Shown here piece by piece: positions 11,521-51,893 of a stretch of 64,000 nucleotides of DNA. Origin of the DNA: Bacteroidota bacterium (lineage in GTDB: Bacteria; Bacteroidota; Ignavibacteria; UBA10030; SZUA-254); contig DATJGD010000074.1 in the NCBI GenBank assembly GCA_035495255.1, positions 318 to 64,317 of the forward strand, written 5' to 3'. The notes beneath the pieces are model-generated. The model was not told the DNA's origin. It ran no database searches and was given only the letters and a program-made list of their open reading frames with translations. The position numbers and the translations under genes were made by a program. Numbering within the stretch: the stretch's first letter is position 1; each line of letters opens with the position of its first letter.

Positions 11521-11541
11521 GAACTTTACCTTGGAGATCAG

Positions 11542-13809: not shown

Positions 13810-13992
13810 CTGTAACCTATTGTCACGGCACCGCTTGCCCCGTGGACCCGCTCGACCCGCCGGGCACGTTGATTCCCGCCTGAAAGCTCCATACATTTAG
13901 ATGCGCCTTGCAATTCAGCCATTATCCCATCACGCGCTGAACTTGTCCCTTTCCAACCATTCACCAGAATATATTCCGTCAAGGAGGGTGTC

Positions 13993-28343: not shown

Positions 28344-28372
28344 TTGACAAGTCAATGGGAATTTATTATAAT
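28344..28372 (+). promoter_or_regulatory. lexA promoter, perfect sigma70 consensus TTGACA-N17-TATAAT
   Basis: TTGACA 28344-28349, 17-nt spacer, TATAAT 28367-28372. Confidence 0.6.
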
Positions 28373-28373
28373 A

Positions 28374-28391
28374 GGTATACGTTTGTATACC
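28374..28391 (+). promoter_or_regulatory. candidate LexA operator: perfect inverted repeat GGTATAC-GTTT-GTATACC
   Basis: IR begins 2 nt after the -10 hexamer, covering the predicted +1 of lexA, 18 nt before the lexA ATG. Confidence 0.45.
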
Positions 28392-28408
28392 TATACAGGA
28401 AAGGGCCT

Positions 28409-29047: not shown

Positions 29048-29117
29048 TTAAGGGTGACAGCCCGTTAACTATGAAAATCAAAGAACAATCGACGAATCAA
29101 CTACAAAGGAGCAGGTT

Positions 29118-30766: not shown

Positions 30767-30809
30767 ATGTCTATAATATACGCATTGGCAGCCTAAGAAT
30801 CGATAGTGT

Positions 30810-31433
30810 ATGATACCCATCCCGTTAACATCGCACACGCTGACGCGATCGCTGCTGCGGCCCGCCGGCAACATGTCGCTCGTCTACGGAGACTCGCTCG
30901 TATTCCGTCTCTCCATGATCACTGCGGCGGAATTGCTGGCGAGCGGCGGAACCATCGCCGTCGTCGACGGCTGCAACAGGTTCGACCTTCACGCAATTAC
31001 AAAGTACGCCCGCGAGCGGAAACTCGATCCGCATCCCCTGCTCGACCGCGTCTTCGTGTCCCGCGGATTTACCTGCTACCAGATGGAAGCGGCCGTAACG
31101 ACCAAGCTTCCCGAGTTTCTTTTCCGGCATAACGGACAGACCGCGATGATCTTCGGCCTTCTCGATACGTTCTACGACGAACAGGTGTCCTTGCAGGAAG
31201 TTCAGCACATCCTTCAACGCGTCCTCCGTGCCCTCGACGAAATGAAACAGAAAAATATTTCCATCCTCCTCGCCTGCACGGAGTGGAACGTGCATCCGAA
31301 GGAGCGCAACATGCTCTTCGACCACCTGAAAAACGGCATGGACCGCATCTACCGGCTCGTGAGGGACGAAGCAGAGCAGCCGAAACTGTTTCTTGAAGAA
31401 CAATATCCGGTACAGCTGCAGAAGAGCGCCTAA
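30810..31433 (+). CDS. ImuA/SulA-like RecA-fold protein (no Walker A)
   Basis: 207 aa; ELLASGGTIAVVDGCNRFDLHAI...AMIFGLLDTFYDE...ISILLAC resembles the inactive RecA/KaiC-like core of ImuA/SulA proteins; divergent from SRAP and directly upstream of a polymerase gene. Confidence 0.4.
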   Translation: MIPIPLTSHTLTRSLLRPAGNMSLVYGDSLVFRLSMITAAELLASGGTIAVVDGCNRFDLHAITKYARERKLDPHPLLDRVFVSRGFTCYQMEAAVTTKLPEFLFRHNGQTAMIFGLLDTFYDEQVSLQEVQHILQRVLRALDEMKQKNISILLACTEWNVHPKERNMLFDHLKNGMDRIYRLVRDEAEQPKLFLEEQYPVQLQKSA

Positions 31434-31714
31434 TGGGCAGAACCGTACCGACATTTACGAATATCATCGATGCCGAGCTGGCGTCATGGGGAAAGTACCG
31501 CCGGGGATTGCGAAAGAAGGACCAGGAGACGTTCGACGAGATGTTCCGCGCCGCGAAACAGCATCTCGCCGAAAACTTTTACGCGATGCGCACGATCCCG
31601 TTCGAAAGCATCATCGTCTCGCTCGTCCTGGAACAGCACAAGCGCATCAAACAACTTGAACAACGGGTGGCGGAATTAAAAAATGACGCAAACGATCAAC
31701 GGATGGCTCTTTGA
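31433..31714 (+). CDS. small hypothetical protein (93 aa) translationally coupled between the ImuA-like and polymerase genes
   Basis: TAATG overlap with the upstream gene, 32-nt overlap with the polymerase start; C-terminal coiled-coil-like KQLEQRVAELKNDANDQ. Confidence 0.35.
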   Translation: MGRTVPTFTNIIDAELASWGKYRRGLRKKDQETFDEMFRAAKQHLAENFYAMRTIPFESIIVSLVLEQHKRIKQLEQRVAELKNDANDQRMAL

Positions 31715-34004
31715 CATCTATCCCGCCCCCTCGGGGGTCACGCTCTGGTTCATCGACACGAACGGAAATAAACATTGCTGTTTCCGCACGTTCACCCCTT
31801 CATTTTTTCTCCATGTCGATGCCAACGACGCGCGCCGGGCCGAAGTCCTCGGGCAGCGGTGCCCTGTACCGGTAACATTCCAGAAGACGAGCCGGCAGGA
31901 GCTCTTCTCCGGCGAATGGCGGGACGTCGTGCAGGTTTTCGTGCACAACCCGATGCGGTTCCGGCAGGCGGTGATCTATTATGAACGTTTCTTTCCGCAT
32001 TTCGCGCTCTACAATTCAGACATCCGTGTCGAGCAGTTGTTTCTCTACGAAACGCAGCTCTTCCCTCTGGGCTACGGCGATTACCTCGTCGATGAAAAAG
32101 GGGAACTGACCGGCTGGACCTTGCGCGACTCCCGGGACGCGGTGGAGTACACCCTCCCGCCCCTCTCGATGATGATGATCCGGAACGCGAACGATTTTGT
32201 CCCTCCGAAATACCAGAGATTTCTCCAGCTTGAGGTGATGTACGACGGCATGACCTACGCGCTCGAGCAGGAGACTCCGGTCGAGATGCTCGAAGCGCTC
32301 AACGGGCACATCTACAGATACGACCCCGACATTATCCTCACGGAGTACGGAGATCCCGTGCTCATGCCGAAAATCACCCAGATGGCGCACCGTTATAACG
32401 TCCCACTTTTATTTAACAGGGACCTGCGCGCCACCTATAAAGTTTCCCGCGAATCGAGCTTCTTCCAGTACGGGAAGGTCGTCCACAAGGACGGCGCGTT
32501 CGAGCTGCGGGGGCGGTGGCACGTCGACGCAAATAACTCATTTACTATTATCGAATCAGACCTGGAAGGTTTATATGAACTCATTCGTGTCACGCAGCTT
32601 TGTCCGCAGCACCAGGCCCGCGCCTCGATCGGCACGGGTCTCTCTTCCCTTCAGCTTTCCTGGGCATACCGCAACAAGGTCCTCATTCCCTCGAAGAAAC
32701 GGGAACCGGAAGAATTCAAGCCTGCCTCCCTCTTATTACTTGCCGACCGTGGCGGTCTCATTTATATGCCGCCCCTCGGATATCACGAAGAGGTCGCCGA
32801 GCTCGATTTTGCTTCGATGTACCCTTCCATTATGGTGACGCAGAACGTCTCGCCGGAAACGGTGAACTGCCGGTGCTGCCATAACAGTGCGGTGCCGGAG
32901 CTCGGGTACACGATCTGCGAGCGCCGGGAAGGGATCATTCCGGCGACATTACGCTCGATCGTCGAAAAGCGGGCATACTATAAGCAGCGGAAAAAAGAAT
33001 TCAAGGGGAAGAACCCGTTGCTGTATAACATGTACGACCGCCGGCAGAATTCATTGAAGTGGATGCTCGTCAGCTGTTTCGGATACCTGGGTTACAAGAA
33101 CGCGCGGTTCGGAAGGATCGAGGCGCATGAATCTGTCAACGCCTTCTCGCGCGACGCCATCCTCACCGCAAAAGAAATCGCCGAAGAGCGCGGCTACGAG
33201 CTTCTCCACGCGATCATCGATTGCATGTGGCTGAAAAAAGAAGGGGCGACGGAACAGGACTACCTGGACCTCTGCCGGGAAATTGCCGAACGTGTAAACA
33301 TCCAGATTTCTCTCGAAGGCATCTACGATTGGATTCTTTTTCCGTCGTCGAAGATGGACGCGGGAATGCCCACCGGCACGCGGTACGTGGGATGGTACCA
33401 TCACGGGGACATCAAAATACGGGGAATAGAATCGCGCCGCCGTGATACGCCGAAGTTCATCAAGAACATGCAGGCTGCGATGCTCGACCATATGTCGGCA
33501 GCCCGCCGCACCTCCGAACTTGAAGCGATCGTCCCCGAGCTGCTGGATGTTGCCCGCGAGCATGTCATGGTCCTTCGGAGCGGCAAAGCAAATCCGATGG
33601 AGCTTGTCTTGCGGCGGCATATCACGAAGGAAGCAGAAGAATACTCGAACAACAGCATCAGCGCCACAGTCACGCAGATGCTCGAAGAGTGCGGCGTTCA
33701 CCTCGCCGCCGGCGAGCTCATCGAGTTTATTATCATCGACGCGACCGGAAAGAAGCAGCCGGATAAGGCCAAACCGCTTTCCCTCTATGCGTTTGAGGAC
33801 GGGTACGATATCGAGAAGTATACCGAACTGGCGCTCAAAGCGGTCGAAACGCTCCTCAGCCCGTTCGGTTATTCGTACGAGCGGCTGCAGGAGGAGTTCG
33901 ACTGCACGCCGAAGAAAAAGCGCAGAATACAACTCAAAAAGGTGGAACCTTCTGAGTTAACTCTCTTTCACGAGCTGCAGAACACGGGGACGGAAAGAGC
34001 CTAA
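31683..34004 (+). CDS. polB: family B DNA polymerase, E. coli Pol II-like, predicted exonuclease-deficient
   Basis: N-terminus LWFIDTNG parallels Pol II SFWLATDNG; motif A DFASMYPSIM, motif B KWMLVSCFGYLGYKNARFG, KxY-like TRYVGWY, motif C replaced by LLHAIIDCMWL; Exo I position reads LSMMMIRNAND instead of (S)IDIETT, Exo III YELIR instead of YxxxD. Confidence 0.85.
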   Translation: MTQTINGWLFDIYPAPSGVTLWFIDTNGNKHCCFRTFTPSFFLHVDANDARRAEVLGQRCPVPVTFQKTSRQELFSGEWRDVVQVFVHNPMRFRQAVIYYERFFPHFALYNSDIRVEQLFLYETQLFPLGYGDYLVDEKGELTGWTLRDSRDAVEYTLPPLSMMMIRNANDFVPPKYQRFLQLEVMYDGMTYALEQETPVEMLEALNGHIYRYDPDIILTEYGDPVLMPKITQMAHRYNVPLLFNRDLRATYKVSRESSFFQYGKVVHKDGAFELRGRWHVDANNSFTIIESDLEGLYELIRVTQLCPQHQARASIGTGLSSLQLSWAYRNKVLIPSKKREPEEFKPASLLLLADRGGLIYMPPLGYHEEVAELDFASMYPSIMVTQNVSPETVNCRCCHNSAVPELGYTICERREGIIPATLRSIVEKRAYYKQRKKEFKGKNPLLYNMYDRRQNSLKWMLVSCFGYLGYKNARFGRIEAHESVNAFSRDAILTAKEIAEERGYELLHAIIDCMWLKKEGATEQDYLDLCREIAERVNIQISLEGIYDWILFPSSKMDAGMPTGTRYVGWYHHGDIKIRGIESRRRDTPKFIKNMQAAMLDHMSAARRTSELEAIVPELLDVAREHVMVLRSGKANPMELVLRRHITKEAEEYSNNSISATVTQMLEECGVHLAAGELIEFIIIDATGKKQPDKAKPLSLYAFEDGYDIEKYTELALKAVETLLSPFGYSYERLQEEFDCTPKKKRRIQLKKVEPSELTLFHELQNTGTERA

Positions 34005-38592: not shown

Positions 38593-41559
38593 ATGTCCGG
38601 CATTTGGACATATTGTCATTGCTCTGTACTATTCGCTCTGTTGGCGCTGTCTCTTCCGGCCGGCGCTTCGCCTCAATTTCGGGAACTGTACGACGACTGG
38701 CGCTGGGTTCACTTCACGACAGAGGCCGGCCTCCCTTCGAATCATGTGCTCGACCTTGTCGAAACTTCCGACGGGACGATGTGGGCTGCCACCACAGCAG
38801 GCATCGCGAGGTATGACGGGTTCCAATGGCACGTCGCTCTTGCATCGTCATCACCCGAAGTTACCAGCGAAGAAATCAGGTTATCAACGGACGCGAAGGG
38901 GAATCTCATTGCGCTCCTTGAAGGAAAACTCTACAAAGAGGTAGACGACCAGCTTGTACGCGTCGACATCAGGAAGGACGGGAAAAGCATTTCTATCTGG
39001 TTCGCCTGCCGCACCGGCGACGATGAGTACATTTGTTTTGATGAGAAGCAGCGGTGTTACCGGTATCTGAGCGGGAGACTCGATTCGATACCTGTCCCGG
39101 GCCAACTTATCAATACCGTAGCCCATGGGGTTCAGGTATCCCAATACACTATGTGGTTGAGTACGACACAAGGGCTTTACGAGTGGTCGAAGTCAGGATG
39201 GGTTCAGCGTATCCCTGTCAGGGACGGCCGCTACGAGATGCAGACTATTTCACACAATGTGCAGGACGTAACGCTTGTCTCCCTCGTTCAGCCGCCGAGC
39301 GCCCGGGGACTCTGGATTTTTAAAGGCGAGGAAAAGGGCAGATATGTGGCTGAGGAAGGCGCGGAGCTTATTCGCGCGATGGATATTTCGCCTCTCTCGG
39401 ACACGATGATCGTCGTCTACAAGTCCGGGGAGGTCCGCTTCTATCAAAACAAGACCTGGAGTTCGCTCGAACATCCGCCGCAGCAGCTTCGCAGCGCTCT
39501 TATGGTGCGGTTCAGTACGAAAGGATTGTGGATCGGCACCGAATCCGGGCTCTATCTCGCAAAGATTTTTTCTCGACGTTGGTCATATTGGAGCCATCCA
39601 TTCCCGAGCACGATGTGCTCCATACATGAAATTGTCCGTTCACGGGACGGCTTGATATGGCTGGGGACAATGGGAGGAATCGAAATCCGGGACTCGAACG
39701 GGACGATGGTCCGCCAGATCACCGAGATCAACGGAAATAAGATACCCGTCATCACGGGCCTTGCCGAGGACAACGAAGGGAATATCTGGACATCCAGCGG
39801 CCTGACCTTCGACGGCGCCTATCAATGGAACGGACAGCGATGGAAACATTTTGGCGAAGCAGAAGGCCTTGCCTCGCCGAGGATCCATAAGATCCGGAAC
39901 GATCTTAACGGAAGAGTGTGGTTCATCGGGCTTCAGGCACGCGATGGCGACAGAACCCCGGGTGCCTTTCTTTACGATCATGGTGTTATCAGCCGGTGGA
40001 AGTCGGGCCCTGAAATTATGACCGGGCGTTTGTATTCGTTCGTTCAAACTGCGGATAGCGCGTTATGGTTCGGAGGCAGTGGCGGAGTGAGCCGGTGGAA
40101 GGAAGGCCAATGGCAGTACTGGCGGTTCGGCGTTAACATCAATGCCAATCCGTTCGTGCTCGCAGCGGGCCTGAACAATACCATGTGGCTCGGAGATCGA
40201 AATACCGGCGTGACGACGATTGATCCGGCCGACAAAGTCCATGCCGATACGAACCTGAGCATGCCCAGCCCCGCCGTTTGGGATCTCGGTCTCGACAACT
40301 ACGGCACGATGTGGATCGCCACCCGGAACGGCATCGTCGGCTGTAGAGACTCGACGGATTTTATGATCACCACGTCGGCAGGCCTCACGAACACGGAAAT
40401 CTGGCCTATCCTCCCGGCAAACGACCGCTTGTACATCGGGACGGACGGGGGCAGTGTCTGCGTCCTGAATTTCGAAGAACGGGAGAACCCGCCGCCACAG
40501 GTGGAAATTGAACCTCCGTCCGTCGATGTCAGCGACGTCCTTCTTCGCTGGCACGCCTTTTCCTACTGGGGTGAAGTGCGCGAAGATAATATCCTGACCA
40601 GATACAGCCTCGACGGCAAAACCTGGTCGAAGTGGTCGCCGGAGCGGGAGCTCACGCTGAACTCGGTTCCTGAGGGAAAGCACCGTTTTCTCGTGCAGGC
40701 GAAAGGGCTCTTCGGAAAATTCCGGGACACCCCGTACATCAAAGCATTTACCATCGCCCCGCCGCTCTATCGCAGGGCAAGCGTGATGGTCCCCGCGGGG
40801 ATTCTCGTGTTCGCGGTGATTTATCTTGCCGCCGCGCTGGTCATTCGAAAGCGCCAGCACACGAGCTCCCTTATCGTCTACCGCGATCAGCTGCGCTCTC
40901 TCGCATCGCAGCTCTCGATTACCGAAGACCGGGAACGGCGCCGCATGGCCACGTACGTACACGATTCGATAAGCCAGGCGCTCGCATTCTGCAAGATCAA
41001 GCTTGCCGCGCTGAGAGATGCACAATCCCCGACCGACGTTACAAGGGCTGTCGACGAGGTGAGCGAACTCATGAGCCAGTCGATAGAAAGCGCTCAAACG
41101 CTCACCTTCGAGCTGAGCCCGCCGGTGTTGTACGAGCTCACGTTTGTTGAAGCCCTCGAATGGCTTGCCGACGTTATGGAGGGGAAGCACGGCCTCAGGA
41201 TCGACTTCTCCGACGACGGCGCGCCGAAACCTCTCGGTGAGGACGTCCGCGGGATCCTCTTTCACGCTGTCAAGGAATGCCTCGTGAACGTCGTCAAACA
41301 TTCGAAGTCGCGTCACGCTCAGATCTCCGTGATGAGATTGGGTGATACTATCAGGATTACCGTCAAGGATGAGGGGGTCGGCATGGCGAGAGAGCAGCTT
41401 CAAACACGGACAACAACATTCGGCTTGTTCAATATCCGGGAAAGGATCTCCAGCCTTGGCGGGAGCGTCATCATCGATTCGAAGCCGGGACTCGGCACGA
41501 CGGTCAGCCTTACAACTCCGTTGAGTACTCAATCCTCCGGTCAGGGAATCAGAATATGA
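38593..41559 (+). CDS. hybrid-type sensor histidine kinase with periplasmic two-component-regulator beta-propeller and Y_Y_Y domain, HisKA_3/HATPase_c output
   Basis: signal peptide; long WD/propeller-like periplasmic region with repeated W..GT..GL motifs; TM (VMVPAGILVFAVIYLAAALVI); H-box HDSISQALAFCKIKL (NarX/DegS-type); G-boxes DEGVGM, GLFNIRERISSLGG. Confidence 0.85.
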   Translation: MSGIWTYCHCSVLFALLALSLPAGASPQFRELYDDWRWVHFTTEAGLPSNHVLDLVETSDGTMWAATTAGIARYDGFQWHVALASSSPEVTSEEIRLSTDAKGNLIALLEGKLYKEVDDQLVRVDIRKDGKSISIWFACRTGDDEYICFDEKQRCYRYLSGRLDSIPVPGQLINTVAHGVQVSQYTMWLSTTQGLYEWSKSGWVQRIPVRDGRYEMQTISHNVQDVTLVSLVQPPSARGLWIFKGEEKGRYVAEEGAELIRAMDISPLSDTMIVVYKSGEVRFYQNKTWSSLEHPPQQLRSALMVRFSTKGLWIGTESGLYLAKIFSRRWSYWSHPFPSTMCSIHEIVRSRDGLIWLGTMGGIEIRDSNGTMVRQITEINGNKIPVITGLAEDNEGNIWTSSGLTFDGAYQWNGQRWKHFGEAEGLASPRIHKIRNDLNGRVWFIGLQARDGDRTPGAFLYDHGVISRWKSGPEIMTGRLYSFVQTADSALWFGGSGGVSRWKEGQWQYWRFGVNINANPFVLAAGLNNTMWLGDRNTGVTTIDPADKVHADTNLSMPSPAVWDLGLDNYGTMWIATRNGIVGCRDSTDFMITTSAGLTNTEIWPILPANDRLYIGTDGGSVCVLNFEERENPPPQVEIEPPSVDVSDVLLRWHAFSYWGEVREDNILTRYSLDGKTWSKWSPERELTLNSVPEGKHRFLVQAKGLFGKFRDTPYIKAFTIAPPLYRRASVMVPAGILVFAVIYLAAALVIRKRQHTSSLIVYRDQLRSLASQLSITEDRERRRMATYVHDSISQALAFCKIKLAALRDAQSPTDVTRAVDEVSELMSQSIESAQTLTFELSPPVLYELTFVEALEWLADVMEGKHGLRIDFSDDGAPKPLGEDVRGILFHAVKECLVNVVKHSKSRHAQISVMRLGDTIRITVKDEGVGMAREQLQTRTTTFGLFNIRERISSLGGSVIIDSKPGLGTTVSLTTPLSTQSSGQGIRI

Positions 41560-42212
41560 CCCAGACAAGAGTTATCGTTGCCGACGATCACCGGATCTTG
41601 CGGGAAGGAATCCGCACGCTGCTTCTCAAGCATAAAGATATGGCGGTCGTCGCCGAAGCAGACAACGGGCGTGAAACGGTCCGGCTGGCAAGGGAGCTTT
41701 CACCCCATGTCGTGATTATGGATATCACGATGCCGGGGATGAACGGCATGGAAGCCACACGGCAGATCCTGGCAGAGCAGCCGGAGATAAAGATAATCGC
41801 GTTGTCGATGCACTCCGACAAACGGTTCGTCGCGAGCATGCTCAACGCGGGGGCATCGGGCTATCTCCGGAAAGACTGTGCCGCGGATGAGCTCATTGTC
41901 GCGATCGGCACTGTCATGAGGGGAGAAATCCACCTCAGCCCAAAACTCATCGGGGTGGTGGCGAAGGACCTTGCCAAAGTTAACAGCGAAGGGGCAGAAG
42001 AATCGGACTCGGTCCGGCTTACCTCGCGTGAAAACGAAGTGCTCCAGCTGCTCGTCGAAGGGAAATCCACCAAACAGATGGCGGAGATCCTGAATATCAG
42101 CGGAAAAACGATTGAGAAGTACCGCAAGAGCATCATGGAGAAGGTCAACGTACGCTCGCTGTCTGAGCTGACAAAATACGCCGTACGGGAAGGCATCACG
42201 CCGCTCGAATAA
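41556..42212 (+). CDS. NarL/FixJ-family response regulator (receiver + LuxR-type HTH)
   Basis: VIVADDHRILREG, VIMDITMPGMNG, C-terminal LTSRENEVLQLLVEGKSTKQMAEILNISGKTIEKYR; ATGA overlap with the kinase gene. Confidence 0.9.
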   Translation: MTQTRVIVADDHRILREGIRTLLLKHKDMAVVAEADNGRETVRLARELSPHVVIMDITMPGMNGMEATRQILAEQPEIKIIALSMHSDKRFVASMLNAGASGYLRKDCAADELIVAIGTVMRGEIHLSPKLIGVVAKDLAKVNSEGAEESDSVRLTSRENEVLQLLVEGKSTKQMAEILNISGKTIEKYRKSIMEKVNVRSLSELTKYAVREGITPLE

Positions 42213-42220
42213 AATGAAAA

Positions 42221-42249
42221 GCCCCGGGACGTCCCTACTGTCACGGGGC
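42221..42249. terminator. possible bidirectional terminator hairpin between convergent genes
   Basis: GCCCCG-GGACGTCCCTACTGTCA-CGGGGC; no strong T-tract. Confidence 0.35.
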
Positions 42250-42307
42250 CTGTTCAGGCACTAATCCACCAGCGTGCCTTCACTTCGAAACAACATAGAA
42301 TTTTCCC

Positions 42308-43681
42308 TTACAACCCGTGCAGAGATTCCCTGAGGATCGTGATGCCTTCGTCGACTTCCTTTTCGGAAATATTCAGCGGCGGCCTGAATCTGAGTGAACG
42401 ATCGCCGGATCCGAGAATGACCAGCCCCTTCTCGTAGGCTTTTTTCCGGACGGCTGTACGATCTTCCGCGTTTCGAAGATCGAACGCGCAGAATAATCCT
42501 TTGCCCCGCACGTTGCTCACCATTGCGGGAAACTCCCGCGCAAGATCGGAAAGCTGCTGCAGCAAATGATCACCCACCACGCGCGCGTTCTCGACAAGGT
42601 TTTCCTCTTCGATGATCTCCAGGAATCGCTGAGAACGCACCATGTCGACAAGCCCTCCGCCCCACGTAGAATTAAGCCTGCTCGCAAGCTTAAACACGTT
42701 ATTGTCAACCTCGTTCACACGGTCGCTCGCCATGAACCCGCACACCTGCGTCTTCTTTCCGAAGGTGATCATGTCGGGTTTGACAAAGTATTCGTGCGCC
42801 CACATTCTTCCCGTGAGCCCGACGCCCGTCTGGACCTCGTCGAAGATGAGCATCATGTCGTGCTCATCCGCGATGCGGCGGAGCTCGACGAAGAACTCTT
42901 TGCGGAAATGGTTGTCTCCCCCTTCTCCCTGGATGGGTTCGAGAATGATCGCCGCGATGTCGTCTCCGTTTGACCGGATCGCAGACATGATCTGGTCGAG
43001 CGACGCCTGTTCGGCGTTCTTTACCGCAGCGAGATTCTCCTCGTTGAGCGGAAAATGAATTGCCGGATTGAGCACTCTCGGCCACCGGAATTTCGGGAAC
43101 AGATCCGTTTTTGTCGGATCCGTATTTGTCAGCGAAAGCGTGTACCCCGTGCGTCCGTGGAAGCATTTCTGCAAATGAATGACCTGCGTCCCTTTGTCTC
43201 CGTTTCGTCCTTTCGCCCTGTTCTTCCGGATCTTCCAGTCGAACGCGGTCTTCAGCGCGTTCTCGACCGCAAGCGCGCCTCCTTCGATGAAGAAGACATG
43301 GGGAAGATACGCCGGCATGGCGATACGGGCAAACGTGTCGACAAATTCCGCAAATTCGACAGACAAAGCGTCAGAGTTTGTCAGTTTGTTCAACGCCGCA
43401 GCCAGAAGTTTTTCCTGGAACTGCGGGTCTGCCAGTTTCGGATGGTTCATGCCGATCGGCATTGAGGCCACGAACGTAAAAAAGTCCAGGAACTTCCTGT
43501 TTGTTTTGGAATCGTAGATGTAGGATCCCTGACTCCGCTCGAGATCGACGACGAAGTCAAGCGCGTCGACAAGCATGTGCTTGCCGATGGTTTCGTGGAC
43601 AGCCATCGGATGGATGGATGACCGCACGTTATGTTGTACTACCATTTCAGTGGAAGCGATTCGCCCTGAATCGAATTTCAT
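42308..43681 (-). CDS. class-III aminotransferase, L-lysine 6-(epsilon)-aminotransferase-like
   Basis: ~450 aa PLP fold-type I; N-terminal HETIGKHMLVDALDFVVDLERSQGSYIYD resembles lysine epsilon-aminotransferases. Confidence 0.6.
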   Translation of the reverse strand: MKFDSGRIASTEMVVQHNVRSSIHPMAVHETIGKHMLVDALDFVVDLERSQGSYIYDSKTNRKFLDFFTFVASMPIGMNHPKLADPQFQEKLLAAALNKLTNSDALSVEFAEFVDTFARIAMPAYLPHVFFIEGGALAVENALKTAFDWKIRKNRAKGRNGDKGTQVIHLQKCFHGRTGYTLSLTNTDPTKTDLFPKFRWPRVLNPAIHFPLNEENLAAVKNAEQASLDQIMSAIRSNGDDIAAIILEPIQGEGGDNHFRKEFFVELRRIADEHDMMLIFDEVQTGVGLTGRMWAHEYFVKPDMITFGKKTQVCGFMASDRVNEVDNNVFKLASRLNSTWGGGLVDMVRSQRFLEIIEEENLVENARVVGDHLLQQLSDLAREFPAMVSNVRGKGLFCAFDLRNAEDRTAVRKKAYEKGLVILGSGDRSLRFRPPLNISEKEVDEGITILRESLHGL

Positions 43682-44017
43682 ATGGCACCTTTATGAATGA
43701 GCCGTTGAACATGACAACGGACTTCTGGTACAATGATAATGGGTTTGTTAAGCAGCTGCTACAGAGAGATCCCCGCGCAGCTATCGGGGAGGGCGAAGCT
43801 TAGAAGAATTCCTGGTGCTCGAAGAGGGAGACGATATAGGGGCGTCCAAGAATGCGGAGTTTGGAGTTCTTTTTACGGATTCCGGTATGTTGGACGGTCT
43901 TCATGGGAGTAATATACGGAAAAAAAGCTTCGGATTCAATGGAAAAGATTACCCCATAAAACACAAAAGCCATCGACCGAAATCGAAGGCTTCCGCATTA
44001 GTAGTGTCTTCGATAGC

Positions 44018-44758
44018 CTACTTGGATATTGTCACAGGCACATCAATGCTGTCGGGATAAACGTTCGCGCCTTCATTGATGAAGCCGGATCTGTTAATAA
44101 CTACTTCTATGAAGTATTTCCCCGGAGGCACACCGGTGACATCAAGCCACTGGCAATCCAGATAACTTCCATACACGTCGCCCCAGCCGACTGAAATTCC
44201 CTGATTGGAGCAGGTGTATCCCTGTGAGGGATACCCTTTCCAGTATTGGGCAACGTCCATGAGGCAGAACGCCTGTTTGTGGCCGGTGACAACCACTCCT
44301 GTGGTATTGCGCAAACGGTACTCGGAAAAGCCTCTGAGGTGGTAGTGTCCGTGGCACGGGCTATACACAAACCAATCGGGATGCGCCGCGGGATCCCCTA
44401 AGATGACATCCGCGGTTCCCAGGTTCGGCGTCGCTACGTCGAATCGCATGATTCTCCGCTTGCCGGAAACAATGCAGCTTTCGACAACCGCGCAGTCGGT
44501 CGGCTTAAATACTTTCCCGGAAAACTTTATGCTTCCTGCCAGCCGCGCCGAGTCGATGGTTATGTCGGGATATGCCGTAGTAACGGTCACGGGAGTCTCT
44601 GTCGGAGGCTGCGTTCCAATTTTTGTCCCGGTCGAAGGAGCAATGGGAGTCGGTGGCTCGGTTGAGCAATCCCATTGCATGAATGCCAGCACGATGAGAA
44701 TGATTCCCGCGAAGGCAATGTATAGCGCTTTGTAATTATTCATGGCACAATCCGGCAA
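44018..44758 (-). CDS. secreted lysyl oxidase (LOX, copper amine oxidase, LTQ cofactor) family protein
   Basis: signal peptide; copper site SPCHGHYH (LOX WEWHSCHQHYH); GHKQAFCLMD (LOX GHKASFCLED, LTQ Lys); QGISVGWGDVYGSYLDCQWLDVTGVPPGKYFIEV (LOX [34 protein letters not shown]). Confidence 0.7.
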   Translation of the reverse strand: MPDCAMNNYKALYIAFAGIILIVLAFMQWDCSTEPPTPIAPSTGTKIGTQPPTETPVTVTTAYPDITIDSARLAGSIKFSGKVFKPTDCAVVESCIVSGKRRIMRFDVATPNLGTADVILGDPAAHPDWFVYSPCHGHYHLRGFSEYRLRNTTGVVVTGHKQAFCLMDVAQYWKGYPSQGYTCSNQGISVGWGDVYGSYLDCQWLDVTGVPPGKYFIEVVINRSGFINEGANVYPDSIDVPVTISK

Positions 44759-44918
44759 AGTTGTTGAAGAAATTCAGGAATACCGTCCCAATTGGGGAGG
44801 TAATATAGATAAAAGGGACGGGAGAGTCAATGAAAGATTCTTATTAGAATGAGGACCTCACTCTTCCGCAACTTAACAGGTTTTCGCAGCTAAGGAAGGA
44901 CAGAACTTTAGGGGCAAT

Positions 44919-44950
44919 AAAAAACCCTCCCGACTATAGGATCGGGAGGG
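44919..44950 (-). terminator. Rho-independent terminator downstream of the 44989..45654 gene
   Basis: minus-strand hairpin CCCTCCCGA-TCCTATAG-TCGGGAGGG followed by TTTTTT. Confidence 0.65.
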
Positions 44951-44988
44951 TTCGCTACCTAACTATATTTTATTGAGCGTCGTCCGAG

Positions 44989-45654
44989 TTAGTCGTGATC
45001 GTAGCGTTTGTACTTGCGATCACCGTAGCGGTTGTTGTAACCGTAATGGCCTTTATAATCTCTGTCGTTGTCGCGATACCGCGATTGCGAGAACTGGTTG
45101 CAAATGACCGGGAAGCTGTTTCCCGAGGATCGCAGGCGAAGCACCTCGGCAGAGTTCCGATGATATCGGTTTGCCAGGAAGTTCGCATTGATCGTGCTGA
45201 CGACACACGCGTCAGACACCATAATCCGGCGGGGTCTCTTCTTCCAGTAGCCCCACGCTTTTCCGTAGGGAGGGCCGGAAGGCCGGCCGGTCTCATAGTA
45301 ACCGGTCTGCGTGTAGCCATCCTGATTGTAGTACGCCTGATCAATTCCACAACGATCCGAAATCTCGCCCCAGCTTACGCCCTGTCTTCGCATCTGGATA
45401 ATGTCATCAGGTGAATAGCCCGAGCGCTGGGACATGTACAATACGACCGGAATTTCTTCGTCGCAGATTCCCTGCCGCTGAATATAGGTGATGTCATTGG
45501 CCGGTACGCGGTAGTAGTCACCGATCGCCATATGGAAGCCCTGCACCTGGCCGTTCGCAATCGTAATGCCGAAACTTGCTCCCTGAGCCTGAGCTTTGCC
45601 GGTACCCAGAAGGGCGGTGAATAAAAATGTCAGAACAATCAATGCACGTTTCAT
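44989..45654 (-). CDS. secreted hypothetical protein with Tyr/Arg/Asp/Asn-rich low-complexity C-terminal tail
   Basis: signal peptide MKRALIVLTFLFTALLGTGKAQA; tail YRDNDRDYKGHYGYNNRYGDRKYKRYDHD. Confidence 0.5.
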   Translation of the reverse strand: MKRALIVLTFLFTALLGTGKAQAQGASFGITIANGQVQGFHMAIGDYYRVPANDITYIQRQGICDEEIPVVLYMSQRSGYSPDDIIQMRRQGVSWGEISDRCGIDQAYYNQDGYTQTGYYETGRPSGPPYGKAWGYWKKRPRRIMVSDACVVSTINANFLANRYHRNSAEVLRLRSSGNSFPVICNQFSQSRYRDNDRDYKGHYGYNNRYGDRKYKRYDHD

Positions 45655-45923
45655 AGTAGTACTCCTTTTATAAAATGTTCAATTCTTCTTTTGACAAACG
45701 CCGTGCCGATGTTGCTTTTCTGCTATTCTGAATAGAATTGGAAGGAAAAAACGGGAGAATTAAAGCGCGTTAATCTTAATGTCCTAAAAAATGAACAGGC
45801 GAACTGGACAGTCAGGTCGGCAATTTTTGGAAGGAATATTGATGAGGTTGAAATTAGAAAGCCGCAGGGTGAAGAATGACTTCGCCCTGCGGCCTATGTT
45901 GAAACGCAGTACTTGTCGCGATG

Positions 45924-47408
45924 CTACTCGTTATCGATCTGTGCGCGCTGCAGGCCGCCGCTATAATCGACGTAAACGGTCTTCCATTCTGTGAAGAAGT
46001 CGAAGACCGTCCAGCCCCCTTCGCGATGGCCGTTGCCGGTCTGCTTGACCCCTCCGAACGGCATATGTGCTTCCGCGCCGATCGTCGGCGCGTTGATATA
46101 GGTAATTCCCGCCTTAACGTCGCGGATCGCTTTGAACGCGCTGTTAATGTTCGTGGTGTAGATTGAAGACGATAATCCGTAGATGGTATTATTCAGCACG
46201 TTAATACCTTCCTCGAGAGACTTAATCCTGATCACAGAAAGGACCGGCCCAAAGATCTCCTCTTTCGCGATCCGCATCTCAGGAGTGACATCCGAGAAGA
46301 TCGTCGGCTGGTAGAACCATCCCTTCCCTAAACCGTCTCCCGAACCCACGCTGCCCCCTGTTACGAGCTTCGCTCCCTCTTCCTGCCCGATCTGCACATA
46401 ACTGGCGACCGTCTTCCGCTGGTTTTCGTGAATGCACGGTCCGACGTCGGTTGTGGCAAGGAGTCCGTCGCCAAGGCGGAGTTTCTTTGTCCGATCGGTG
46501 AGCATCGACATGAACTTATCGAACGCCTTCTCGTGAAGCAGGAGACGGCTCGTCGCAGTGCAGCGTTGACCTGTCGTGCCGAACGCTCCCCACAATACGC
46601 CGTCGAGCGCGAGACTGAGGTCCGCGTCGTCCATAACGATCTGCGCGTTCTTTCCCCCAAGCTCGAGTGATACGCGCTTCAGGGTTTTGCTGGCAACTTC
46701 GGATATTTTGATCCCGACTCCGGTCGATCCGGTAAAGCTCACGAGATCGACATCCGGGTGTTCGACGATCGCCGTACCGACGTCGCTTCCGCCGCCGTGA
46801 ATGATATTGACCACGCCCTCAGGGATCCCCGCTTCCATGAGAATCTCTACAAGCATGGTTGCTGTTGCCGGAGTATCGTGCGCAGGCTTGAACACGACGG
46901 TATTCCCCGAGACAAGGGCAGGGAAAATTTTCCATGTCGGGATTGCCATGGGAAAATTCCAGGGCGTGATGATGCCGGCGACGCCGATCGGCACACGAAG
47001 CGCCATGTTAAACTTATTCGGCAGTTCCGACGGAACGGTCTTTCCGAAAAGCCGCCGCCCCTCGGAGGCGGCATAAAACGCCGTATCGATGCCTTCCTGG
47101 ACGTCGCCCCGTGTTTCGACGAGGACCTTCCCCATTTCCCGCGTCATCGTTCGGGCGATTTCTTCCTTTTTCGCCACCATGAGATCACCGACCTTCTTCA
47201 TGATATCGCCCCGCTTCGGCGCGGGCACGAGCCGCCATTTGTCGAACGCAGTCCGCGCGGCTTTTACCGCCGCAGTGACATCGTCTTTCGACGACTTCGG
47301 GAATGTCCCGACGACTTCTTCCCAGTTCGCGGGGTTGCGGTCTTCGAAGACCTGTCCCGATGCCGCATCGACCCATTTGCCATTGATAAAATTCTGATAT
47401 TTTCTCAT
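45924..47408 (-). CDS. NAD(P)-dependent aldehyde dehydrogenase
   Basis: 494 aa ALDH fold; catalytic regions ELGGKNAQIV and GQRCTATSRLL. Confidence 0.85.
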   Translation of the reverse strand: MRKYQNFINGKWVDAASGQVFEDRNPANWEEVVGTFPKSSKDDVTAAVKAARTAFDKWRLVPAPKRGDIMKKVGDLMVAKKEEIARTMTREMGKVLVETRGDVQEGIDTAFYAASEGRRLFGKTVPSELPNKFNMALRVPIGVAGIITPWNFPMAIPTWKIFPALVSGNTVVFKPAHDTPATATMLVEILMEAGIPEGVVNIIHGGGSDVGTAIVEHPDVDLVSFTGSTGVGIKISEVASKTLKRVSLELGGKNAQIVMDDADLSLALDGVLWGAFGTTGQRCTATSRLLLHEKAFDKFMSMLTDRTKKLRLGDGLLATTDVGPCIHENQRKTVASYVQIGQEEGAKLVTGGSVGSGDGLGKGWFYQPTIFSDVTPEMRIAKEEIFGPVLSVIRIKSLEEGINVLNNTIYGLSSSIYTTNINSAFKAIRDVKAGITYINAPTIGAEAHMPFGGVKQTGNGHREGGWTVFDFFTEWKTVYVDYSGGLQRAQIDNE

Positions 47409-47419
47409 TTCATTCTCCG

Positions 47420-48715
47420 TTAATTCAAACCTGCTTGTTCAAAGATATAGTCCACGTGTTTGATACTCTTTTCCAGATCGAACAACTCATCTATTTCGTC
47501 GGTTGGCAGATACGCGGCGATCGACCCGTCGCACTGCAAGAGCTGCTTAAAATCCTGTTTCGTTTGCCAAGACTGCATCGCATTGCGCTGGACGATGGCG
47601 TACGCTTCTTCCCGTTTCATTCCTTTTTTTGTAAGAGCAAGCAGCACTGACTGAGAAAACACAAGCCCGTGCGTCAGCTCCAGATTTTTCTTCATGTTTT
47701 CCGGATACACAAGGAGCTTATCGACAACATCGGTAAACGTCGCGATCATATAGTCCAGCAGTATGCAGCTGTCCGGAATGATGATGCGTTCCACCGACGA
47801 ATGCGTGATATCCCGTTCATGCCAGAGGGCGACGTTCTCGAGAGCCGCCTGGGCGTTTCCGCGCAGCACTCTCGCCAGTCCTGCGACGCGCTCGCAGGTA
47901 ATCGGGTTGCGCTTGTGCGGCATCGCCGATGAGCCCTTCTGCCCTTTTGAGAAAAACTCTTCCGCCTCGAGCACCTCGGTTTTTTGAAGATGGCGGATCT
48001 CGGTGGCAAATTGCTCGAGAGAACTGGCGATGACGGCGAGCGTCGTCATGAATTCAGCATGGATATCGCGCTGGAGAACCTGCGTCGACACCGGTGCAGC
48101 CTTTAAGCCAAGTTTTTCACAGACATACTTCTCGACGTACGGGTCAAGATGTTCATATGTCCCGACCGCGCCTGAAATCTGCCCGACCGAGATCGTGGCG
48201 ATGGCGTGCTGAAGGCGATCGATATTTCGTTTGTTTTCGTCGTACCAGAGGGCGAGCTTGAGCCCGAAGGTTGTCGGCTCGGCATGAATGCCGTGTGTCC
48301 TGCCGACCATGATCGTGCGTTTGAACTCTTTCGCTCTGCGGGCAAGGACATCGGAAAACTTGTTCAAATCTTTCAGAAGCAGCTCGCCTGATTGCTTCAT
48401 CTGGACTGCAAGTCCTGTATCCAGAACATCGGAAGATGTCATCCCGAGGTGAATGAACCGTGAGTCGGGGCCGACATATTCTCCCACGTTCGTGAGGAAC
48501 GCAATAACGTCGTGCTTTACTTCAGCCTCGATTTCTTCGATGCGCGCGGCGTCGAACTTCGCCCGCTGCCGGATCGTGAGAGCCGCCGTCTCGGGGATCG
48601 CTTTGAGCTCAGCCTGCGCTTCGCAGGCGAGGATTTCGATTTCGAGCCATGTGCGGAATTTGTTTTCTTCGGTCCAGATTGCGCCCATCGCCGGGCGCGT
48701 ATACCGTGGGATCAT
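47420..48715 (-). CDS. purB: adenylosuccinate lyase
   Basis: [37 protein letters not shown]; fumarate-lyase signature [11 protein letters not shown]. Confidence 0.92.
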
Positions 48716-49950
48716 GAAGGGCCGCGTTCGAGTCGTAGTTCGAGATTCATCGGCTTTTTCTCGCGGAGGATTTTCATTTTCAGGAGGGTGCCTTCGGAGG
48801 ATTCGACGACCATACCGATGAGCGTATCATCGTCGTTGACCTTTTCACCATTCACCTCGAGGATGATATCGCCTACTTTAAATCCTGCCTTCTGAGCGGG
48901 GCTTGCCCGTTTCACGTCGCTGACAATGACACCTTCGACCTGATCGAGACCGAAGTAGCGCGCGACACGCCGGTCGACCGTCTGAATTTCCAGCCCGGTC
49001 CAGAGATTGCGTTCGATCTTTCCGGTTTTCTTAAGCTCGGAAAGGACGCCTTTAACTCTGTTGATCGGTATCGCAAATCCGAGACCGATGCTTCCCTGGT
49101 TCGGCGTAAAGATAACGGCATTGACACCGATAACTTCGCCAAGAGAATTCAGCAGAGGCCCGCCGCTGTTCCCTGAATTGATCGCGGCGTCCGTCTGTAT
49201 CATGTTTCTGTAATAGCGCCCCCCTTCGGCATTGAGGTTCATGCCCGTCGCGCTCACGACGCCCACGGTTACTGTGGGCTTATCGCTGATCTCGAACAAT
49301 CCGAAGGGATTTCCCATCGCGATGACCCACTCGCCGATGAGCACGTCATCGGAGTTACCGAGCTTGATAAAAGGAAGATCTTTGCCATCGATTTTCAATA
49401 ATGAAATGTCCGACACCATATCGGTACCAACGAGCTTCGCGGTATATTTTCCCTTGTTCGTCAGGGTTATAGTAATTTCTTTCGCATTGCCGGCGACGTG
49501 ATCGTTGGTGAGAATGTAGCCGTCCGCGGAAATGAGAAATCCTGATCCGAGCCCTTTGACCTCCTGGCGATAGGTTTTGTTGCCGAAGTATTGACGGAAG
49601 AAGGGATCGTTGCCGAAGAATTGGGAGAATGGATCCTGGTATTGATATTCGCGAACTTCGGTAACGTTGATGCCAACCACTGCAGGGCTGGCAACCGCAA
49701 CTGCCCGCGTTATCGCGTTGTGGCGCTGGCCTGAAATTTTTTCGTTGACGCTGTCGCGGGATGCTGTCTGAAATACGGGGGGTGTGGATTCATCGTCGCT
49801 CGATTGGTCGACACGATGTACGGCGGCCGTAGCGTGATGGCCTACCCTATATCCGGATAAAAATCCCGCAAGAAACGGTATCGAGATGATCGCCAGCAGT
49901 ATAAATAGCTTCTTGGGCATAGTGTTTTGCTCCTTCCCCTTTCTCAACAC
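48712..49950 (-). CDS. HtrA/DegP-family serine endopeptidase (trypsin domain + PDZ)
   Basis: signal/anchor; His-box ILTNDHV, Ser-box GNSGGPL, C-terminal PDZ ([12 protein letters not shown]). Confidence 0.85.
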
Positions 49951-49955
49951 TCAGG

Positions 49956-50912
49956 CTATTTCTTGCGTTTCAATACCGCGCGCGCTGCTTTGACGATATC
50001 GTCTTTGGCGATCCCGTATTTCTTCATGAGCTCGTCTCCCTTGCCCGATTCCCCGTACGTGTCGTTGACGGCGACGGACTCGAGCGGCGCGGGTGAATGC
50101 CATGCAAGCACCTCTGCGACGGCGCCTGCGAGGCCCGCATGCTTCTGATGATCTTCGGCCGTGACGATTGCGCCAGTTTCCCTGGCGGCTTTGATAACGA
50201 TGTCGTTATCGAGAGGCTTGATCGTGTGCATGTTGATGAGGCGAACGCTGATGCCTTCGGCAGCGAGCACTTCCTCGGCCAGCACCGCTTCCCATACCTG
50301 CAGTCCGCAAGAAATAATCGTAACGTCCTTGCCGTCGATGAGAGTATCTGCTTTGCCGAATTCGAATTTGGCGTTTGCGTCGGTGAAGACCGGGGTGTTA
50401 TCGCGGAAGAAACGGATGTATATCGGATGATTCCATTGAATGGAAGCATGGATCATTTTCTTGGTCTGATTGTAATCGCATGGCGTCGCTACGGTCATAT
50501 GCGGAAGAACGCGCATGATCGCAAGATCTTCGAGCGATTGATGCGTCGCACCATCGGGACCGACGGTGATGCCGCAGTGCGAAGCGCAGATTTTTACCGG
50601 CAACCTGCTGTACGCGACCGACTGGCGGATCTGATCGAACGGACGGCCGACGGCAAATTCGCCGTACGTCGACGCGAACGGAATTTTTCCTGCAACGGCA
50701 AATCCGGCTGCGGTTCCGATCATATCCTGTTCAGCTACTCCGACTGAGAAAAACCGGTCGGGAAACGCTTTCATGAAGAGATCGGTGCGCACGGAACCGG
50801 TTACGTCTCCCCCGAGAACGACAACGTTGGGGTTTACTTTACCGAGCTCGACGAGAGCTTCTCCGAATCCGAGGCGGGTGGCTTTGAGTTCTTTAGTTTG
50901 AAGTTTAGGCAT
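49956..50912 (-). CDS. transketolase, C-terminal (pyrimidine-binding) subunit
   Basis: 318 aa matching the transketolase PYR and C-terminal domains; adjacent to the N-terminal-subunit gene. Confidence 0.85.
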   Translation of the reverse strand: MPKLQTKELKATRLGFGEALVELGKVNPNVVVLGGDVTGSVRTDLFMKAFPDRFFSVGVAEQDMIGTAAGFAVAGKIPFASTYGEFAVGRPFDQIRQSVAYSRLPVKICASHCGITVGPDGATHQSLEDLAIMRVLPHMTVATPCDYNQTKKMIHASIQWNHPIYIRFFRDNTPVFTDANAKFEFGKADTLIDGKDVTIISCGLQVWEAVLAEEVLAAEGISVRLINMHTIKPLDNDIVIKAARETGAIVTAEDHQKHAGLAGAVAEVLAWHSPAPLESVAVNDTYGESGKGDELMKKYGIAKDDIVKAARAVLKRKK

Positions 50913-50993
50913 AGATGAATTTCAGGTTTTAGGTTTCTATAAGATTGCAGCATTCACTAACCGGCAGTACGTTGCCGGATCGCAGATACCGAA

Positions 50994-51893
50994 TTACTTC
51001 GCTCCTGCTTCGACCGGCTCTCTTTCCCAGGCAAACTCAATAAAATCTCCGTACTTCGTCGGGGCGAGCTCACTTAGCGCCTGCTTGCCCTGCTCGTCGT
51101 TCGGCGGAACGCCGTGCCATTTGTAATCATCTTCCATGAATGAAACGCCCTTACCCATGAAGGTCTGGGCAATGATCACAGACGGCTTGCCCTTCAGCTG
51201 CTGGGCTTGCTGAATGGTTTTCAGGAACTGGTCAATGTCGTTGCCGTTGCATTCGAGGACATTCCAGCCGAAAGACTTCCATTTATCGGCGAGCGGTTCG
51301 AGCTCCATCACCTTGTCGGTGCGGTTGTCGATCTGGCAATGATTGCGGTCTACGATTGCGATAAGGTTATCAACCTTATGATGGCCAGCCGTCATCATCG
51401 CTTCCCATACCTGTCCTTCATCAAGTTCTCCGTCGCCGTGCAGTACATACACGCGATTCGGCTTTTTGTCCAGCGTAAGCGCAAGCGCGCAGCCGACGCC
51501 AACAGACAAACCCTGCCCTAACGCTCCGGAAGCGATTTCGACGCCCGGAACGCCGTGCGTGTACGCGGGCGCGGGATGCCCCTGCAAACGTCCGTTCATT
51601 TTTCTCAGCGTGTCCAGTTCCTTTGTGGGAATATATCCCCGGCGGGCCAGCGTCGCATACCATACCGGGCACAAGTGCCCGGCAGAGAGGAAGAAATAAT
51701 CTCTCTCGGGCATCGTCGGCTTCTCATGATCGATGTTCATGATGCTAAAGTAGAGGCTTGCAAAAATATCGGCAAGGCCGAGCGGGCCTCCTGAGTGACC
51801 CGACTTCGAGATCATCAGCATCTTGATGATGTCGCGCCGGATCTGGCGGGCGATTTCGTTTAATTCAGATACGTCGGATGTTCGCATTGTCAT
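50994..51893 (-). CDS. transketolase, N-terminal (TPP-binding) subunit
   Basis: SKSGHSGGPLGLADIF and GDGELDEGQVWEA TPP-binding motifs. Confidence 0.85.
   Translation of the reverse strand: MTMRTSDVSELNEIARQIRRDIIKMLMISKSGHSGGPLGLADIFASLYFSIMNIDHEKPTMPERDYFFLSAGHLCPVWYATLARRGYIPTKELDTLRKMNGRLQGHPAPAYTHGVPGVEIASGALGQGLSVGVGCALALTLDKKPNRVYVLHGDGELDEGQVWEAMMTAGHHKVDNLIAIVDRNHCQIDNRTDKVMELEPLADKWKSFGWNVLECNGNDIDQFLKTIQQAQQLKGKPSVIIAQTFMGKGVSFMEDDYKWHGVPPNDEQGKQALSELAPTKYGDFIEFAWEREPVEAGAK

Follow-up and report, generated by a model that had tools for sequence, protein, structure and literature searches.

Between positions 42308 and 47408, on the minus strand, the 64,000-nt stretch of Ignavibacteria DNA analyzed here (contig DATJGD010000074.1, hereafter the window) carries the genes of an L-lysine 6-transaminase (LAT), a lysyl oxidase homolog (LOX), and an aldehyde dehydrogenase (ALDH). 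A preliminary description of the window had read this arrangement as a coordinated extracellular and intracellular pathway for lysine and allysine, or as a protein cross-linking system. We consider it likely that the locus is instead a conserved LAT-ALDH pair into which the genes of an exported LOX and of a second protein, U221, were inserted in a single lineage, and that the position of LOX is coincidental. Because LOX lies between LAT and ALDH in this one lineage only, the seeming "allysine cluster" of three enzymes most likely came about by chance.

According to the list of open reading frames (ORFs), all genes of the locus (42308-48715) are on the minus strand, in the transcription order purB, ALDH, U221, LOX, and LAT. 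The purB gene (adenylosuccinate lyase, 47420-48715; TIGR00928, 565 bits) lies 11 bp upstream of ALDH (45924-47408, 494 aa). The spacer between ALDH and LAT (42308-43681, 457 aa) measures 2242 bp (43682-45923) and carries U221 (44989-45654, 221 aa) and LOX (44018-44743, 241 aa), with gaps of 269, 230 (to the TTG start of LOX at 44758), and 336 bp along the series ALDH, U221, LOX, and LAT. The three ORFs originally pointed out, namely LAT, the LOX homolog, and ALDH, are real and correctly placed, and the same interval also holds the U221 gene and a conserved micro-ORF (43800-43853), both of which had been skipped. Three contigs, each from a different sample, show the same gene order with an identical LOX protein, and the arrangement is therefore not an assembly artefact.

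Gene order in related genomes and the probably inserted segment

We surveyed 80 LAT loci, taking one genome per species and flanks of up to 10 kb, by tblastn with the window proteins. The order HtrA-purB-ALDH-LAT recurs in Ignavibacteria-like metagenome-assembled genomes (MAGs), from which the relatives of LAT come; the window itself is part of a MAG from soil. Among the 68 LAT loci with at least 2.5 kb upstream of LAT, 36, each from a different species, have an ALDH ortholog (73-89% identity) on the same strand and directly upstream of LAT, with a median gap of 213 bp and a gap below 700 bp in 30 of them. In two loci (L049 and L056), ALDH and LAT abut or overlap, and purB and HtrA are absent. 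Neither LOX nor U221 was found in any of the 80 LAT loci.

Six relatives show a larger gap between ALDH and LAT, filled with unrelated cargo. This cargo comprises an AhpC/TSA redoxin with small Cys-rich ORFs in L008 (7596-10000), an AIPR protein, which is abortive-infection-like, in L009 (1659-3282), an IS200-like transposase in L010 (9055-10000), TamB with Omp85 in L014 (981-10000), and a nucleotidyltransferase, an NTPase, and a TonB-dependent receptor in L022 (2909-10000) and L070 (5466-10000). The ALDH-LAT spacer is therefore a recurrent landing site for foreign genes in this lineage, and the spacer of the window, with U221 and LOX, adds a further instance.

The reverse survey, centered on LOX, gave a corresponding picture. 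It covered 83 LOX loci among the matches listed, of which the metagenome scan supplied 80, and searched their 428 kb of flanking sequence by tblastn at an E-value of 1e-5; within this set, no locus (0/83) contains LAT, an ALDH of any kind, or U221. The neighbours are entirely different around three close LOX homologs whose contigs are long (68%, 55%, and 47% identity). A conserved LOX partner was also sought by clustering 1434 neighbour ORFs from 84 LOX loci and was rejected, as no family extended beyond four to five closely related loci. Since the spacer is a recurrent landing site and the context of LOX differs in every genome examined, we regard the placement of LOX next to LAT as coincidental.

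The predicted transcription signals along the segment are separate for each gene. Around 30 nt past the ALDH stop codon, a 14-bp inverted repeat is followed by TTTCTAATTT, the whole forming a terminator-like element with a T-rich tail (45861-45893). U221 is preceded by an AGGAG ribosome-binding site and followed, in the interval before LOX, by a strong intrinsic-terminator-like hairpin with a 13-bp stem and a T-run (44922-44953). A sigma-70-like promoter match, TTGACT-17-TATATT, lies 5' of LOX (44802-44830) and agrees with the consensus at 10 of 12 positions, which makes it a consensus match only. Together with the conserved leader that precedes LAT, these predictions are in line with the two surveys and give no hint of a LOX-LAT-ALDH operon.

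U221 is an orphan, presumably secreted protein with a signal peptide, which found no match in Pfam, NCBIfam, or PADLOC. Only seven homologs were recovered (30-38% identity), all from Ignavibacteria-like metagenomes. In these proteins a GPPYGKAWG motif is invariant, and a tail rich in Lys, Tyr, Arg, and Asp is conserved in composition and not in position. The AlphaFold2 model of U221 is all-helical, with a predicted local distance difference test (pLDDT) score of 70 and no fold match in the PDB. The homologs, including P0124 and P0126, sit in unrelated contexts with no LOX beside them. U221 was accordingly rejected as a LOX partner, given these unrelated contexts and the lack of a family or fold match. 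Recent horizontal transfer of the insert was considered as well and is unsupported: coding GC content is equal to that of the surroundings, the only direct repeats (12-21 nt) are at chance level, and there is neither a tRNA nor a transposase, the window as a whole being devoid of tRNA genes.

The lysyl oxidase homolog

An NCBI entry that goes by the name "lysyl oxidase family protein [Bacteroidota bacterium]" matches the LOX protein at 100% identity. It has 246 aa if read from a TTG at 44758, and 241 aa from the ATG at 44743, which is the start called by NCBI and JGI and the one used for numbering here. The Pfam family PF01186 (Lysyl_oxidase) covers residues 97-229 with 97.7 bits against a threshold of 20.4 (E 9.1e-28). 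The protein consists of an N-terminal hydrophobic helix, Cys26, a Pro/Thr-rich linker, and a catalytic domain at residues ~60-241.

The motifs on which the assignment was originally based are all present, i.e., CHGHYH at residues 130-135, GHKQAFCLMD at 154-163, and DCQWLDVT at 196-203. Human LOXL2 (5ZE3) is the sole PDB sequence match (E 2.9e-22), and the active-site residues align with it, with LOXL2 residue numbers counted along the sequence alignment using the chain offset. Cys130 and the copper-binding His131, His133, and His135 (44339-44356) correspond to C625, H626, H628, and H630 of LOXL2. Lys156 within GHKQAFCLMD (44276-44278), the lysine of the lysine tyrosylquinone (LTQ) cofactor, corresponds to K653, and Tyr191 within GDVYGS (44171-44173; GDVYGSYLDCQW), the LTQ tyrosine, corresponds to Y689. 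The LTQ pair, whose absence would have spoken against the assignment, is thus complete. In 69 bacterial homologs, C84, C130, H131, H133, H135, K156, C160, C178, Y191, and the QW.D motif are invariant, and C90 and C197 are kept in at least 90%.

An AlphaFold2 model built from the 69-homolog alignment has a mean pLDDT of 90.0 and a predicted template modeling (TM) score of 0.77. When this model was compared with the PDB by Foldseek, chains A and B of 5ZE3 were alone significant (E 8.9e-14 and 4.6e-13), with a TM score of 0.63-0.66 on the query and a root-mean-square deviation of 2.8-3.6 Å; the next match had an E-value of 1.7e-3. Three disulfides of LOXL2 (C573-C625, C579-C695, and C657-C673) are matched in the alignment by cysteines of LOX. 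At ~30% identity to LOXL2, the bacterial protein of 241 aa differs from it in having no SRCR domains, no propeptide, and no equivalent of the C663-C685 pair. With its HxHxH motif, Lys156 and Tyr191, and six matching cysteines, LOX looks catalytically competent as far as sequence and fold can tell, and the assignment to the lysyl oxidase family stands.

The N-terminus of the model comprises a helix (residues 4-24) and a disordered Pro/Thr-rich linker (residues 25-60). Cys26 (44666-44668) directly follows the hydrophobic region of the signal, in the context AFMQWDC followed by STEPP, and is a candidate lipidation site. Residues -3 to -1 are Q-W-D, which is not a canonical lipobox. The closest homologs (P0002-P0012 and P0014) all have a hydrophobic region and then a Cys (W/I-x-C[STAN]), other homologs show NSC, and more distant ones have AQA signals of the signal peptidase I type. 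Because a Cys follows the hydrophobic stretch in LOX and in its closest homologs, we think that LOX is an exported protein, probably held by a lipid anchor at Cys26 with the Pro/Thr-rich linker as its tether. Its earlier description as secreted holds with respect to export and is better put as a lipoprotein-type or membrane-tethered exported protein.

The view that bacterial lysyl oxidases are rare turned out to be overstated. A HMMER scan of 1.84 billion cluster representatives returned 4038 LOX relatives at E ≤ 1e-3, each representing a cluster at 50% identity, of which 1894 remain at 1e-10 and 490 at 1e-30, and a pattern scan of metagenomes gave at least 599 stretches. LOX has been known since 2015 in five bacterial phyla, including Bacteroidetes, with a function unknown at that time, and most of these bacterial proteins consist of the LOX domain only, some having a signal peptide or transmembrane segment and some having neither (Grau-Bove et al. 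2015, PMC4448552). Many of the metagenomic representatives (P0129-P0274) are multi-domain proteins of up to 2615 aa or contain two to four tandem LOX-like stretches; the single-domain LOX of this locus differs from these.

One archaeal member, HTU-LOX from Haloterrigena turkmenica, is an active amine oxidase, sensitive to β-aminopropionitrile and of relaxed specificity, which acts well on taurine, cadaverine, polymyxin, and aminoglycosides and poorly on free L-lysine, with a relative Vmax/Km of 0.058 (Pestov et al. 2019, PMC6452851). LOX shares with HTU-LOX and with the prokaryotic LOX-domain-only proteins the single domain, the N-terminal hydrophobic signal, the HxHxH motif, and the LTQ Lys and Tyr. 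The clade of LOX is set apart from these by a predicted Cys of the lipoprotein type and a tether rich in Pro and Thr, and the location between LAT and ALDH is particular to this genome.

A literature search for bacterial LOX lipoproteins or for lysine catabolism in Ignavibacteria found nothing relevant. Exported oxidation of the lysine ε-amine has a bacterial precedent in LodA, the L-lysine ε-oxidase of Marinomonas mediterranea, which converts this amine into allysine, NH3, and H2O2. LodA is a cysteine tryptophylquinone enzyme whose fold is unrelated to that of LOX and which requires LodB, so the precedent concerns the reaction and implies no homology to the LOX studied here. LOX is a further stand-alone member of a known, widespread, and functionally obscure family of exported amine oxidases.

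The aminotransferase, its candidate leader, and the dehydrogenase

LAT belongs to Pfam Aminotran_3 and passes the equivalog model TIGR03251 for L-lysine 6-transaminase with 672.6 bits against a cutoff of 520.8, the next NCBIfam model being the eukaryotic γ-aminobutyrate (GABA) transaminase with 270.9 bits. The closest PDB entry is the LAT of Mycobacterium tuberculosis (2CIN, E 2.5e-147), compared with 4e-55 for the GABA aminotransferase. By these matches the enzyme is lysine-specific, the models for the GABA, ornithine, and acetylornithine enzymes being clearly inferior. LAT orthologs with 54-60% identity are also common in archaeal MAGs of the Thermoplasmatota (L046-L048 and L057-L087). These have neither an adjacent ALDH nor the micro-ORF, which suggests that LAT passed between the domains and is followed there by another downstream pathway.

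The micro-ORF upstream of LAT (43800-43853) has 17 codons, reading (I)LGRPYIVSLFEHQEFF-stop, and ends in GRPYIVSLFEHQEFF-stop, 118 nt before the LAT ATG. A predicted hairpin (43753-43783; RNAfold of the spacer) is placed shortly 3' of the micro-ORF stop and 5' of the LAT ribosome-binding site (AAGGTG-N-ATG). When the LOX-LAT spacer was compared with the LAT loci by blastn, a stretch of 36-72 nt stood out, conserved at 76-94% in 26 relatives, or in 27 loci counting the window's own contig (L007), at ~100-190 nt upstream of LAT. The stretch is present even without an adjacent ALDH and is absent where ALDH and LAT abut.

The pattern of conservation is that of a coding sequence, with variation at third codon positions and an in-frame stop. 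For the last 15 codons (35 distinct sequences), mean column conservation is 0.86, 0.92, and 0.65 at positions 1, 2, and 3, against 0.41 in both flanks. In the terminal EHQEFF-stop, the residues E, H, E, F, and F and the stop are invariant in the 35 sequences, and 20 of them have ATG, GTG, or ATT/ATC/ATA 17 codon positions ahead of the stop. The amino-acid sequence is kept in the LAT loci of 34 other species, with sharp boundaries at start and stop. A loose peptide pattern had 36 matches on both strands of 1.86 Mb, made up of LAT-centered loci plus ~0.5 Mb of other DNA, and all 36 lie directly upstream of LAT on the LAT strand. The micro-ORF is thus short, lies upstream of LAT, and, to judge from its codons, has an amino-acid sequence under purifying selection.

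In 21 of 27 loci the hairpin begins within 6 nt of the micro-ORF stop, and the mean z is -1.55; the stem sequence varies by lineage and a T-rich tail is seen in some only. A riboswitch or other known RNA upstream of LAT was rejected, since Rfam gave no match at E ≤ 1 over 41500-48800 and the conserved element is coding. The EHQEFF motif was not found in the literature searched, and a protein search with a 57-aa extended micro-ORF matched only itself. A degenerate DNA pattern of the micro-ORF had a single AT-rich, chance-like match in viral contigs, without LAT.

By its layout, the micro-ORF is possibly a regulatory leader peptide of LAT. We propose tentatively, as one possibility, that it is a sensory leader in which translation, or arrest at the stop codon, would govern the hairpin and switch on LAT, possibly in response to lysine. 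The model for such a device is TnaC, the leader peptide of the tryptophanase operon (tnaA), which controls the gene of an amino-acid-catabolizing enzyme. The likeness to TnaC comes from the layout alone, i.e., a short ORF before a catabolic gene, a peptide conserved up to its stop, and an RNA element in between; the two peptides share no sequence similarity, and the micro-ORF was found only in Ignavibacteria-like LAT loci. As LOX was inserted upstream of this intact, LAT-specific leader, LAT would keep its own control.

ALDH clearly belongs to the Aldedh family (PF00171, 586.7 bits, E 3.5e-176) and is predicted to use NAD(P). The suggestion that it could be the piperideine-6-carboxylate (P6C) dehydrogenase, Pcd, through membership of the ALDH7/Pcd group does not hold at the level of the family. 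The model for this enzyme (NF050084, pip_6_carb_DH) reaches 377.6 bits, short of its cutoff of 730, and ranks 14th, and the best NCBIfam models, GucD (2-oxoglutarate-semialdehyde; 564 against a cutoff of 770) and 2,5-dioxovalerate dehydrogenase (529), are also below cutoff. The nearest PDB structures are a Thermus ALDH (6FKU) and other generic ALDHs, and neither ALDH7 nor Pcd is among the 60 best PDB matches. Placement with ALDH7/Pcd through a catalytic-loop fragment was tried and rejected, as Pcd (6RTR) came 14th and antiquitin (2JG7) 28th, showing no special affinity. The catalytic-Cys motif, GQRCTA at residue 280, is common to HpaE and to the NAD+ aldehyde dehydrogenase 4I3T.

By family, ALDH is therefore a generic member; by its adjacency to LAT, it remains a plausible partner of that enzyme. 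Because the coupling to LAT is conserved, including in abutting pairs outside the purB block, ALDH is the best candidate for the dehydrogenase of the LAT product, and we find it reasonably probable that it oxidizes this product as a 2-aminoadipate-semialdehyde/P6C dehydrogenase of a non-ALDH7 type. A comparable arrangement is found in the lat-pcd modules of actinobacteria, which convert lysine into 2-aminoadipate, as in the cephamycin cluster of Streptomyces (PMC9854754). These modules, represented by M. tuberculosis Rv3290c (LAT, 2CIN) and Pcd (6RTR), share with the locus a LAT ortholog and an aldehyde dehydrogenase gene alongside. They differ from it in the dehydrogenase, which here is not ALDH7/Pcd and is nearest to GucD-like enzymes and the Thermus ALDH, and in the micro-ORF leader, which is not known from actinobacteria.

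No further lysine-catabolic genes were found in the window, which otherwise contains housekeeping genes and cargo proteins of the type IX secretion system (T9SS). Directly upstream of HtrA-purB-ALDH, a transketolase is split into genes for its N-terminal and C-terminal halves (49956-51893, minus strand). Three large genes in a row on the plus strand (8143-17655; 1125, 755, and 1220 aa) encode T9SS C-terminal sorting domains, two of them with InhA-like MAM and SdrD_B repeats, and an S46 dipeptidyl-peptidase lies upstream (5725-7914), which suggests a secreted proteolytic or adhesive arsenal. The region 28355-34004, where LexA, a DUF72 protein, an SOS-response-associated peptidase (SRAP), and a family-B DNA polymerase occur together, looks like an SOS/damage-tolerance neighbourhood.

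Alternative readings and biological meaning

The interpretation that we favor starts from a long-standing, conserved pair of genes, with ALDH ahead of LAT. LAT would move the ε-amine of lysine to 2-oxoglutarate, giving allysine/P6C, and ALDH, as its conserved adjacency indicates, would then oxidize this product to 2-aminoadipate. LAT would carry its own conserved 5' leader, the 17-codon micro-ORF followed by the hairpin. A lineage-specific insertion of 2.2 kb (43682-45923) would have brought in U221 and LOX as two independently transcribed genes of exported proteins. As LOX is exported and competent-looking, its amine oxidation would take place outside the cytoplasm, where it may act on primary amines, either peptidyl-lysine or small amines, to yield aldehyde, NH3, and H2O2, like HTU-LOX.

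Several observations weigh against this interpretation. The coincidence it requires is striking, with two enzymes of the lysine ε-amine chemistry flanking a third gene, and LOX may have been recruited to the locus in this single lineage. The neighbour comparison is limited in power because many loci of the LOX survey are on short contigs, and the promoters and terminators are called from agreement with a consensus and not from measurement. The coding GC content of LOX and U221 (~0.55) equals that of the flanks and so gives no compositional sign of recent transfer, and no mobile-element remnants, flanking repeats, or transposase were found at the insert. As for ALDH, its substrate is deduced from synteny only, and the HtrA-purB-ALDH-LAT block includes functionally unrelated genes.

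The coordinated pathway first suggested for the locus would have the exported LOX producing allysine/P6C outside the cell, out of free or peptidyl-lysine found there, LAT producing it inside, and ALDH oxidizing both to 2-aminoadipate. It can draw on three real enzymes encoded next to one another on one strand, on the conservation of the ALDH-LAT pair, and on the ability of a LOX-family enzyme to oxidize free lysine, albeit poorly, as the relative Vmax/Km of HTU-LOX indicates. We nevertheless hold it to be very improbable: the two surveys found no LAT locus with LOX and no listed LOX locus with LAT or ALDH, LOX has no conserved neighbour, and the same gap holds unrelated cargo elsewhere. Moreover, terminator-like hairpins lie between the genes, each of which has its own promoter- or terminator-like signals, the conserved leader of LAT lies downstream of LOX, free lysine is a poor substrate of the only characterized prokaryotic LOX, and the locus encodes no transporter of P6C or allysine. 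We give little credence, too, to an enzyme-substrate cassette in which LOX would oxidize lysines of U221 and thereby bring about the cross-linking of a surface or matrix layer, in the manner of animal LOX acting on elastin and collagen. Both proteins appear to be exported and their genes are adjacent, and in U221 an invariant Lys is set among Tyr, Gly, and Pro residues, alongside a disordered tail rich in Lys and Tyr, but a strong predicted terminator separates the genes, the K-rich tail is conserved by composition and not by position, the U221 homologs P0124 and P0126 are not beside LOX, and a U221-like gene occurs in none of the 83 listed LOX loci. Recruitment of LOX to this locus, whether as the extracellular arm of lysine catabolism or as a cross-linker of U221, is in our view less likely than the sensory-leader reading of the micro-ORF.

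A different objection concerns the conserved pair itself. ALDH could be unrelated to lysine, acting on 2,5-dioxovalerate or 2-oxoglutarate-semialdehyde or as a generic enzyme, and could simply travel in a housekeeping block, with LAT feeding, e.g., pipecolate. This would agree with the ranking of GucD and 2,5-dioxovalerate dehydrogenase, albeit below cutoff, ahead of the low-scoring Pcd model, with the absence of ALDH7/Pcd structures among the closest relatives in the PDB, with the 11-bp distance to purB and the terminator-like hairpin behind ALDH, and with the archaeal and KSB1 LAT loci that have no ALDH at all. In ALDH7A1, however, the Arg and Thr flanking the catalytic Cys (R301/T303) contact the carboxylate of the substrate, and the R-C-T motif present here is common to dehydrogenases of anionic semialdehydes. 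Since ALDH and LAT also abut or overlap in L049 and L056 despite the lack of purB and HtrA, we judge an ALDH unrelated to lysine unlikely, and retain the conserved LAT-ALDH pair with a lineage-specific insertion as the preferred reading.

A true three-gene cluster would have given bacterial LOX a metabolic context. The evidence removes this context, and the neighbours of LOX say nothing about its substrate. The Ignavibacteria-like pair of LAT and a non-ALDH7 ALDH, in turn, is a candidate for an analogous, unrecognized 2-aminoadipate-semialdehyde dehydrogenase that the NCBIfam models do not name. If the micro-ORF upstream of LAT is regulatory, it would be a new example on the short list of metabolite-linked leader peptides.

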